DNA from: a virus
Taxonomy: Duplodnaviria > Heunggongvirae > Uroviricota > Caudoviricetes
IMG/VR virus record: IMGVR_UViG_2778261567_000020
DNA length: 6,180 nucleotides
Direction: 5' to 3' (one strand)
Position 1 is the stretch's first letter, and each line of letters starts with the position of its first letter. Below are positions 1-3,000 of the stretch, one piece after another. The position numbers are program-made.

Positions 1-3000
1 GATGGCGTGGAGACATACGGTGTGTGGGGACTCTCCCTGCCGTCACTGCGTCGTCGCCTGTTCCGCTGTGTTTCCATCCGGGAAAACACGGACGGCACCT
101 TTGCCATCACGGCAGTGCAGCATGTGCCGGAAAAAGAAGCCATCGTGGATAACGGGGCCAGCTTTGAGCCGCAGTCAGGCACCCTGAACAGCGTTATCCC
201 ACCGGCAGTGCAGCACCTCACGGTGGAGGTGAGCGCGGCTGACGGCCAGTATCTGGCACAGGCGAAATGGGACACGCCGCGGGTGGTGAAGGGGGTGCGC
301 TTCAGTCTGCGACTGACCAGCGGAAGCGGAGAAGACAGCCGTCTGGTGACCACCGCCATCACTGCGGATACAGAGCATCGTTTCAGTGGTCTGCCGCTCG
401 GGGAATACACCCTGACGGTCAGGGCGATTAACAGCTATGGCCAGCAGGGCGAACCGGCCACCACCACCTTCCGGATTAACGCGCCAGCAAAACCCGCCAC
501 CATTGAACTGACGCCGGGGTATTTTCAGATAACGGCGGTCCCGCGTCTTGCGGTGTATGACCCGACGGTACAGTTTGAATTCTGGTTTTCGGAGGCAAAA
601 ATCGCAGACACCGCACAGGTGGAAACCGCTGCCCGTTATCTGGGGACCGGCAGCCAGTGGAGCGTCTCCGGCAGCCGGATTAAGCCGGGGACGGATTTCT
701 GGTTTTATGTGCGCAGCGTCAACCTGGTGGGCAAGTCTGCGTTTGTGGAAGCCGGCGGGCAGGCCAGCAATGATGCGGAAGGTTATCTGGACTTTTTCAG
801 AGGAGAAATAGGGAAAACGCATCTGGCTCAGGGGCTGTGGGAGCTGATAGATAACAGCCAGCTTGCGGATGATATGGCGGAAATGCAGACCACCATCACC
901 GAAACCCGCAATGAAATCACACAGACGGTCAGTAAAACGCTGGAGAGCCAGAGCGCCACCATACAGCAGATACAGCGCGTGCAGACGGGCACAAATGATG
1001 ACCTGGCTGCACTCTACATGCTGAAGGTACAGAAAACGAAAGACGGCATTCCCTATGTGGCCGGGATAGGTGCGGGGATTGAGGATACTGATGGTCAGAC
1101 GCTGAGCAACATACTGCTGCAGGCTGACCGTATAGCGATGATTAACCCGCAGGACGGCAACACCACGCCGTTATTTGTGGCGCAGGGGAATCAGTTGTTC
1201 CTGAATGATGTTCTGATGAAATCGCTGATTGTTGATTTTGCCAGTATTACAGGTGAGATCCAGTCTGATGGTTTTAAATCCGGATCACCCGGCTGGCGTT
1301 TTTCACGTAACGGAAAACTGGAAATTAACAGCAGTAATGACGGTGGGCGCATGACTTTTAACGGCGATCGTATCGATGTGTATGATCAGAATGGTGTGCT
1401 GCGTGTCCGGATGGGGAAACTCTGATGTTCATTCTTCAGGAGCAGTGATATGGGATACGGTTATTCTGTTTATGATGGCAAAGGAAGGGATATCAGCGGG
1501 TTTCTCACTCCGATATTTTTTCTTGACAGATTCACGGCATCGTCAGGCTCAAAAACATACGCAGATCCACCACGGGGAAAGTCATTGTGTGCTGTATGTT
1601 CATTAATGCCTTTGAATAATGATAATCATATAAATATTCCGTCTCCTCAGATTGTTATTGAAGGTAACACGGTTCGCTGGTCAAACCTGTATCAGGGATT
1701 AGGTTCATATATTTATACATTCTGGAGGTGAGCATGCATGGAATGAGTATTACACAGCCGGATGGAAGTGTATGGCTGAGCCCGGAATTTACCCCTGCCT
1801 GTTTAATTAATAAGGGGAATCTGGCAGCCTCAAAGGGCGCGCTATACAGAACATCAATACCTTCCGGGAAGTCGTGTTTTTTCTTTATAAAAAGCACCGC
1901 CAGGGCAAATATGATGTTTTTACATGAACAGTCTGGTGGTGTGCATACATTAAAACTCCATCAGTTATCAGGTAACCCAGGAACAATTACTGTTTATGCG
2001 TTTTCCGATATGGTGTTACCGCATTCTGGTTATGGTATTGCCATGTATAATAAAAACGGAGAGATGATTTATCATGGCGAGATGATGCCGCTTGATGCAA
2101 AACTGGTTAATGTTGATGTCCAGTTTTCAATTAACATGGGGTATCCGTGTGCAATAATGCCTGCAATGGTTGGCGTATATAATTACAGACGAACAGATTA
2201 TGACAGGCCTGTATATGTCACCATGACGGGGGCAACGGGAAATCAGATATATAACGGGGAATGGTATTCGAGTAATGTCACCTGGGATGTGCGTAAATCC
2301 TATACCAGACAGGTTCTTGTTATTGATACATCAAAATATGATTAAATCACTGTGCAGATAGTTTATTTTGATGGTCAGTTAATTTTATGCGTAAACAGCA
2401 TGTGATGCATTATCGAATCTGTTCTGTTTAATTATGGCTGGGTATTAAAATGAAAATATCAGGTTTTATTGCCGGGTTTTATTTTACTGGCATGAGTTTC
2501 TTTCCCGTGATGTCGTGGGCTGCAAAGGGGGAGCATACGTTGTCGCAGGGGTATGTCTGGCTTCATGTGTCCGGTCTGAAAAATTTTGTGAAAAACAGGT
2601 CTGATTATAACAGAATGGCACTTGAACAGGTTGTAAATGACGGTTTTCATTCCCGGGAAAATGATAATGGTGGTTTCAGCAATTATGTGGGAAACGATAA
2701 GCCACTGCAGGGGATAAACGTCAGGTATCGTTATGAAATAACGGATAAGCTGGGTGTGATGAGTTCTTTTACCTGGGTACACTCAAAAACCAGTGCAAAA
2801 TCCATAGCTGATATTCATCCCGCCGGGGCAGGAGAGGCAACATCCCATGTATCAGCCAGGACTGATATCATTGCCAGTTACCGGAGTTTCCTGGCAGGGC
2901 CGGTATGGCGGGTTAATGAGTATGCCAGTCTCTATGCAATGGCTGGTGCTGGCATGACAAAATTTTCTGCGGATTTGAAAATCAGTAAAAATATCAAAGG

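Follow-up and report, generated by a model that had tools for sequence, protein, structure and literature searches.

The question raised by this locus is how a lambda-type phage recognises its receptor when its J protein lacks the domain that lambda uses for this purpose. The window, i.e. the whole stretch of 6,180 nt analysed here (IMG/VR record IMGVR_UViG_2778261567_000020), comes from the distal part of the tail region in a lambdoid prophage of E. coli. A previous, sequence-only reading had described J as ending soon after its conserved core with a short, divergent C-terminus, and had suggested that receptor recognition was shifted to the side fibre or to a swapped module.

Most of the window is covered by near-identical DNA in just two of the 5426 complete genomes of E. 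coli, those of FHI_NMBU_11 (NZ_CP045712) and the O111:H8 strain 8E (NZ_CP077465). Besides J and the three genes following it, the window contains a collagen-like side fibre gene with an S74 chaperone domain (3256–4782), a gene for a Gp38-type adhesin (4868–5380) and, downstream of the latter, a DUF4376 fragment. The last gene in window order is DinI-like and lies on the minus strand.

The ending of J and the position of the joint

The window encodes the C-terminal 474 residues of J (positions 1–1422, TGA at 1423–1425; plus strand, frame 1), with the reading frame running past its left edge. The protein ends with ...RVRMGKL, and exactly 70 residues lie between the conserved block PLFVAQGNQLFLNDV (1168–1212, plus strand) and the stop codon, in agreement with the earlier estimate of ~70. 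The statement that lambda J continues for a couple of hundred residues past the equivalent block was also accurate: alignments with lambda J (1132 aa) and with J of the EHEC phage BP-4795 (1158 aa) gave 204 post-block residues for both proteins and confirmed that this 204-residue end is missing here. The full-length copy of the window J in FHI_NMBU_11 comprises 1024 aa without an internal stop and is 134 residues shorter past the block.

Up to the block the protein shares the domain succession of lambda J, which binds LamB, and of BP-4795 ORF72 (FNIII-A, Phage-tail_3, two Ig_J domains and Phage_Tail_Tip). FNIII-A_GpJ, Phage-tail_3, Ig_J and Ig_J_second are present in the full-length copy from FHI_NMBU_11. 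A Pfam search of the part visible in the window returned both Ig domains and Phage_Tail_Tip (PF09327; E = 7.4e-31, residues 321–453 of 474); the latter ends 21 residues before the stop, and no domain follows it. The lambda/EHEC-type body (1–1211, plus strand), which comprises the two Ig_J domains, a coiled-coil stretch and the start of Phage_Tail_Tip, matches the lambda J chain 8iyk_J with an E-value of 1.8e-146. J also fits the NCBIfam family NF049904 (lambda_TipJ), scoring 1986.8 bits at a cut-off of 1950. The profile is matched over positions 1–987 of 1163 only, however, and positions 988–1163 have no counterpart in J. By profile and alignment, the covalent C-terminal receptor-binding domain, which makes up the last ~150 residues of lambda J, is absent from this protein, as had been suspected.

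DNA identity to the J gene of BP-4795 amounts to 90.6% over positions 1–1211 of the window and stops exactly at nucleotide 1211, where DNA homology to lambda also stops. In the protein alignments with lambda and BP-4795 J the sequences diverge directly past the block. The GC content is 0.56–0.60 in the J body (GC3 0.68), 0.46 in the last 70 codons (GC3 0.46) and 0.40–0.42 in the two following genes, ORF93 and ORF203. A compositional boundary at the J stop codon, as described in the sequence-only reading, was rejected, since both homology and composition place the break at nucleotide ~1212. With both breaks located at ~1211/1212, the J tip, ORF93 and ORF203 are therefore best regarded as one imported block. 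As judged by homology and base composition, the lambda-type body and the imported tip were joined by recombination at the 3' end of the PLFVAQGNQLF block.

Relatives of the J tip

The tip (last 70 codons and TGA; 1213–1425, plus strand) is not the odd, divergent stub it had been taken for. With the last 75 aa of J as a tblastn query, 861 phage records were matched at 45–50% identity, 588 of them with at least 80% of the 75 aa covered. Fibres that were inspected singly have the same end point as the window J within 0–6 residues. The match reaches the stop codon of the J-like gene in Cyrano (SSU5-like), IsaakIselin (T1-like, Bas10) and SaltyDalty, and the end point of J is also that of several PHROG profiles. 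Among PDB sequences the tip aligned to residue 1168 of 1172 of T1 gp33 (9l9p_S) and to residue 427 of 429 of a 429-aa 'J central straight fiber domain' protein (9ze4_N); an F2-pyocin fibre was matched as well. The 422-aa central needle of the Stx phage Stx2-86 terminates with ...IEVYDENGRLAVRIGRLS and the window J with ...RIDVYDQNGVLRVRMGKL, the ending shared by the Stx needle and J being ...VYDxNGxLxVRxGxL.

Judged by sequence, a very large class of J-like central fibres ends in this way as a rule. The J gene is not truncated: its final 70 residues match, up to the stop codon, natural C-termini of fibres that are devoid of a receptor-binding domain. A well-populated J subfamily with the same ending thus exists, but this ending is not a known receptor-binding fold. 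Regions homologous to the tip form a plain trimeric β-prism or β-helix in F7 pyocin (PMC12874032) and in the phi24B cryo-EM preprint, and in these two sources the F7 pyocin and phi24B needle tips were judged unlikely to bind receptors on their own. The C-terminus of gp33 is not resolved in the T1 cryo-EM paper. We presume that the J tip, a 'knife' or β-prism terminus of the T1/SSU5/Stx-needle type, is the docking site for a cap.

The two genes between J and lom

The genes at 1450–2345, which are absent from the sequence-only reading, most likely encode the receptor-binding cap. ORF93 (1450–1731, plus strand) starts 24 nt after the J stop, ORF203 (1734–2345, plus strand) follows 2 nt after the stop of ORF93, and each is preceded by a Shine-Dalgarno sequence. 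ORF203 comprises 203 aa from the ATG at 1734; the ORF list gives 205 aa from a GTG at 1728. A consensus scan revealed no terminator-like site on the J strand between J and the end of lom (2450–3181, plus strand), the gene for an outer-membrane β-barrel of the Ail/Lom type (Pfam Ail_Lom), for which we do not claim a role at the tip. A terminator-like hairpin with a T-run is located 3' of lom (3208–3231, plus strand) by consensus scan only.

Both proteins have strong family matches, ORF93 to phrog_557 ('outer membrane protein') and ORF203 to phrog_425 ('membrane associated protein', moron category). No signal peptide, lipobox or transmembrane/hydrophobic segment was found in either of them, whereas Lom does show a signal peptide or hydrophobic segment. 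The maximum 19-residue Kyte-Doolittle averages are 0.81 (ORF93) and 1.11 (ORF203), and there is no signal-like stretch at the N-termini. Matusiak et al. (2025) likewise predicted a low membrane affinity for both families (PMC12309495). We consider the labels 'outer membrane' and 'membrane associated' to be misleading for these families. In a comparison with the corresponding genes of the metagenomic contig L011, the J tip had a dN/dS of 0.13 and ORF93 one of 0.095, while for ORF203 a pN of 0.10 was obtained against a saturated pS of 0.76. Going by these values, the J tip, ORF93 and ORF203 are working genes under purifying selection and not debris.

The predicted fold of ORF203 matches that of a validated receptor-binding protein (RBP) from Oekolampad, a likeness of fold only at 10% identity. 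ORF93 is a small β-sandwich, and its fold comparison gave no informative match. Searches of PDB sequences with ORF93, ORF203, the ORF203 family profile and a 309-aa relative returned no match, and the solved small-siphovirus RBP has no sequence-level match to the window ORFs; the link to this RBP is consequently one of fold. An exhaustive profile search yielded 126 representatives of the ORF203 family at 50% identity. In a subgroup of 309–325 aa the ORF203-like region begins at about residue 105, and homology to ORF93 extends over the first 100 residues. With a search space of one sequence, hmmsearch gave E = 3.3e-6 for the ORF93 protein of the window and values down to 4e-8 for its relatives. 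The fused form lies directly 3' of J in the Pantoea phage Vid5, and for the match in Yersinia P400 J is among the overlapped features listed. Given these fused forms, we argue that ORF93 and ORF203 act as one unit. A comparison of the two by hhalign gave no usable evidence of paralogy, aligning only a 14-column GYG..Y[DN]..G motif with a probability of 1.4%. The genes beside J in IsaakIselin, which targets YncD, showed no significant BLASTP match to them.

The ORF93/ORF203 pair is situated directly after the needle gene and before lom in Stx2-86, and 3' of J in SaltyDalty. In Nonagvirus JenP1 it lies beside J on the opposite strand, with an ORF203 homologue of 75% identity. In SSU5-like elements (Cyrano and the phage-plasmids L012 and L013) the pair is found far from J, among accessory genes and adjoining lom, although the J protein of these elements has the same ending. 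L011 carries lambda-type L, K and I genes, a J of 1027 aa, genes for 93 and 204 aa, lom, stf and tfa. In E. coli F1022 (L015) the lambda-type J comprises 1180 aa, shares this ending and is followed by genes for 74 and 220 aa; the 220-aa protein matches the ORF203 family with 98.5% hhalign probability. Candidate cap genes are thus also next to J in L011, L015, SaltyDalty, Stx2-86 and Vid5. Together with lom they form a recurring trio in several phage types, in the same order in Stx2-86, L011 and L012/L013. Cassette DNA at 66–72% identity occurs in 571 E. coli genomes, in Stx-type prophages and plasmids of ~110 kb. ORF203 itself is 62% identical to its homologues in phi24B-type Stx phages, which are nearly identical to one another.

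Receptor recognition: proposal and alternatives

According to the BASEL paper, small siphoviruses bear dedicated RBPs non-covalently on the J-like protein and encode them beside gpJ, while some phages carry a lambda-like C-terminal extension instead (PMC8594841). T1-like Drexlerviridae, Dhillonvirus and Nonagvirus (Oekolampad RBP, Rtp44) all have J-like tip proteins with separately encoded RBPs. We take these phages to be virulent and to possess J bodies that are not of the lambda type. Their characterised RBPs differ from the window genes in being single proteins of ~309 aa accompanied by a superinfection-exclusion lipoprotein. Such a lipoprotein is typical of RBP loci in the BASEL collection, though not universal, and its gene is present in the SaltyDalty locus; between J and lom of the window there is no ORF of at least 40 aa with a lipoprotein signal. 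The contact between J and RBP is not described in the LptDE paper.

In Stx phages (phi24B gp56–gp55–gp54; Stx2-86 gp26–gp27–gp28–lom) a fibre with a Phage_Tail_Tip-type region is followed by a gene for ~93 aa, a gene for ~204 aa and lom, in the same order as in the window. The cassettes of Stx2-86 and the window are 66% identical at the nucleotide level. The two systems differ in the carrier of the tip: in the Stx phages it is a 422-aa needle in a podovirus nozzle, and here a siphovirus J of the lambda type with 1024 aa. This prophage also carries an Stx-phage-like side fibre (81.6% nucleotide identity to the lateral fibre of Stx2-86). Matusiak et al. studied both protein families (in Dhillonvirus JLBYU60, phi24B and a Littlefixvirus), pointed out that the spike has a 'knife-like' end and lacks a receptor-binding domain, and modelled a ~23-kDa 'hand-like' protein onto the spike tip (PMC12309495). 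The phi24B cryo-EM preprint (2026) reports extra density at the needle tip as well as gp54 (204 aa) in the virion proteome, and suggests that BamA is bound by gp54, either alone or together with gp55; this assignment is itself still a proposal.

F-type pyocins, although Pseudomonas tailocins and not phages, are similar in two respects: the C-terminal region of their central fibre matches that of J (25vf_A, E = 3e-4), and two small genes are located just 3' of the fibre gene. The products of these genes in F7 pyocin, PyoF11 and PyoF12, are essential, are present in the particles and are predicted to sit on the end of the J-like fibre (PMC12874032); we liken them to ORF93 and ORF203 by gene arrangement. 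According to the cited literature, pb4 and pb5 of T5 work alike, with a threefold fibre devoid of a binding domain and a monomeric RBP attached to it non-covalently.

We consider it probable that a lambda-type J was joined by recombination to a capped tip, and that ORF93 and ORF203 constitute a non-covalent receptor-binding cap. Recombination right after PLFVAQGNQLF, at nucleotide ~1211, would have replaced the lambda-type receptor-binding domain by a module consisting of the 70-residue trimeric β-prism tip and the co-transcribed genes ORF93 and ORF203. We infer that the products of both genes assemble non-covalently on the J tip, with ORF93 as the tail-proximal adaptor; ORF203, placed on the threefold tip, would bind an outer-membrane protein receptor. 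The side fibre and the Gp38-like adhesin would serve in primary adsorption. Terminal recognition, for which lambda uses a covalent domain of J, would thereby have passed to a cap with genes of its own, following a logic common to T5 pb5, the RBPs of T1-like phages and Dhillonvirus, the phi24B gp54/gp55 proposal and pyocin PyoF11/PyoF12. Counting against the proposal are the placements of the pair in SSU5-like phage-plasmids and JenP1, the absence of a sequence-level link to a solved RBP, the uninformative fold comparison of ORF93, the missing exclusion lipoprotein and the rarity of the exact module (2 of 5426 genomes). BamA and FhuA, which the literature links to phages with such an arrangement, are candidate receptors by analogy; FhuA has been reported to be the principal receptor of Dhillonvirus JLBYU60, whose likeness to the window is by gene arrangement only. 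The interpretation given in the sequence-only reading is thus supported in part: a swapped module agrees with our findings, whereas the evidence neither requires nor favours recognition having moved to the side fibre.

It is very improbable that J is a truncated, non-functional pseudogene of a decaying prophage and that the ORFs downstream are unrelated insertions. PGAP does annotate gpJ as a pseudogene 'missing C-terminus' in both genomes that bear the module, because the match to the lambda_TipJ profile breaks off at position 987 of 1163, and a DUF4376 fragment in the region and an IS element in FHI_NMBU_11 would be in keeping with decay. The frame, however, is open over 1024 aa and stops exactly where many intact J-like fibres stop, the dN/dS of the tip was obtained against an independent allele (L011) that keeps the whole arrangement, and J with the same ending is annotated as intact in another lambdoid prophage. 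The PGAP label is probably wrong. We also regard it as unlikely that ORF93 and ORF203 are moron or lysogenic-conversion genes directed at the host envelope, with the bare J tip and/or the side fibre and Gp38-like adhesin recognising the receptor. The low membrane-affinity estimates (PMC12309495) and the finding of gp54 in the phi24B virion proteome (phi24B preprint) argue against such a role, as does the lack of a signal peptide or hydrophobic segment in both proteins, unlike Lom. While the PHROG labels and moron category, the recurrent trio with lom and the complete side fibre and adhesin downstream speak for morons, and the placement of the pair far from J in SSU5-like elements or on the opposite strand in JenP1 would fit them in either case, the predicted fold of ORF203 matches a validated RBP, and homologues or fused forms adjoin J in Nonagvirus JenP1 and Vidquintavirus Vid5. 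The latter two are presumably virulent phages, in which lysogenic conversion would make no sense.

A further model, the first hypothesis of Matusiak et al., assigns receptor binding to an ORF93 homotrimer, acting in trans as an Ig-like equivalent of the lambda J domain, and regards ORF203 as an assembly chaperone or as an alternative cap, the latter giving rise to two subpopulations of virions. It was derived from AlphaFold2-Multimer models (PMC12309495), and the β-sandwich fold and strong purifying selection of ORF93 are compatible with it; we nevertheless think it quite unlikely.

Capped J-like fibres have recently been recognised, and the families of ORF93 and ORF203 have already been proposed as caps. 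The present analysis adds a case in which a tip of this kind is joined to the body of a lambda-type J, with the joint precisely mapped and several lambdoid examples, as well as a fold link to a solved RBP, the argument from the fused forms and the misleading nature of the PGAP and PHROG labels. The position right after PLFVAQGNQLF represents a natural cut-and-rejoin site of lambda-type J proteins, and the prophage offers a lambda-like chassis for genetic tests of the proposed tip-cap RBPs of Stx phages and small siphoviruses. The two annotation errors appear to be systematic, concerning J as a pseudogene in PGAP and the cap as membrane proteins in PHROG-based tools, and both would lead predictions of host range astray for E. 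coli prophages, those of pathogenic strains among them.

More tentatively, and with some doubt, the J tip, the two cap genes and lom might be seen as a portable host-recognition cassette that moves across morphotypes with the invariant PxFVAQGNQxF block as the recombination joint. The morphotypes in question are podoviral Stx phages, SSU5-like phage-plasmids, and T1-like and lambda-like siphoviruses. Were this the case, the hypothesis that the cap is the RBP would become directly testable by lambda genetics, and the prophage described here would represent a lambda-type phage that has been redirected in nature to the receptor of a cap like that of Stx podoviruses. BamA or another essential protein of the outer membrane might be this receptor.

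Annotation of J and a short recurring motif

The intact 1024-residue J is labeled by PGAP, the automatic annotation of NCBI, as a pseudogene "missing C-terminus" in two E. coli genomes carrying near-identical DNA (FHI_NMBU_11, L001 4351–7299; O111:H8 strain 8E, L002 3351–6299; equivalent to window positions 1–1299), because the lambda_TipJ profile expects a receptor-binding domain. ORF93 carries no annotation in either record. The motif GYG-x-x-[VM]-Y-[DN]-x-x-G is found at the N-terminus of ORF93 (1453–1494) and again in the middle of ORF203 (2028–2069), and the end of J (RIDVYDQNGVLRV, 1369–1410) resembles it. 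A profile comparison on the motif aligned just 14 columns and was not significant. The motif may represent a β-hairpin common to the three proteins and used for docking to the tip, or it may have arisen by chance.

Related loci in other phages

The trio of a 93-residue gene, a gene of about 205 residues and lom (1450–3181) recurs in podoviral Stx phages, SSU5-like plasmid prophages and lambdoid prophages (for example L010 6714–8443 and, in an SSU5-like element, L012 5205–7000). An E. coli lambdoid prophage (NZ_OY754357, L015 1191–5655) encodes a lambda-type J of 1180 residues with the same ending as the J of the window. It is followed by genes for 74 and 220 residues, the latter product being a remote ORF203-family member; lom is absent from this locus. 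This arrangement points to several cap alleles in circulation among lambda-type J proteins. In phage SaltyDalty an 88-residue lipoprotein with a signal sequence ending in LTGC, a candidate superinfection-exclusion protein, is encoded between J and the cap genes (L007 4728–4994); the window has no counterpart.

Side tail fibre and downstream genes

Directly 3' of the side fibre lies a tail-fibre adhesin gene (Gp38_N/phrog_1121, 4868–5380), whose product is probably the adhesin for the primary receptor. A 70-residue DUF4376 fragment (5456–5668) is the remnant of a tail-fibre-assembly-like gene; PGAP lists the equivalent gene as a pseudogene lacking its N-terminus. FHI_NMBU_11 carries an IS1414 (IS256-like) insertion (L001 11807–13015) that is absent from the window at ~5702–5710, and the window therefore represents a related but different genome.

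The side tail fibre (3256–4782) comprises a phage_tail_N domain, collagen G-X-Y repeats (about 270 residues, GC ~0.70) and a Peptidase_S74 intramolecular chaperone. In FHI_NMBU_11 the corresponding gene exceeds it by 63 nt (1590 versus 1527 nt), and the breaks between the blastn pieces fall inside the collagen-repeat region. Nucleotides 3660–4762 share 81.6% identity with the gene for the lateral fibre gp21 of the podoviral phage Stx2-86. Two modules, that of the central tip and that of the side fibre, are therefore common to this prophage and short-tailed Stx phages.
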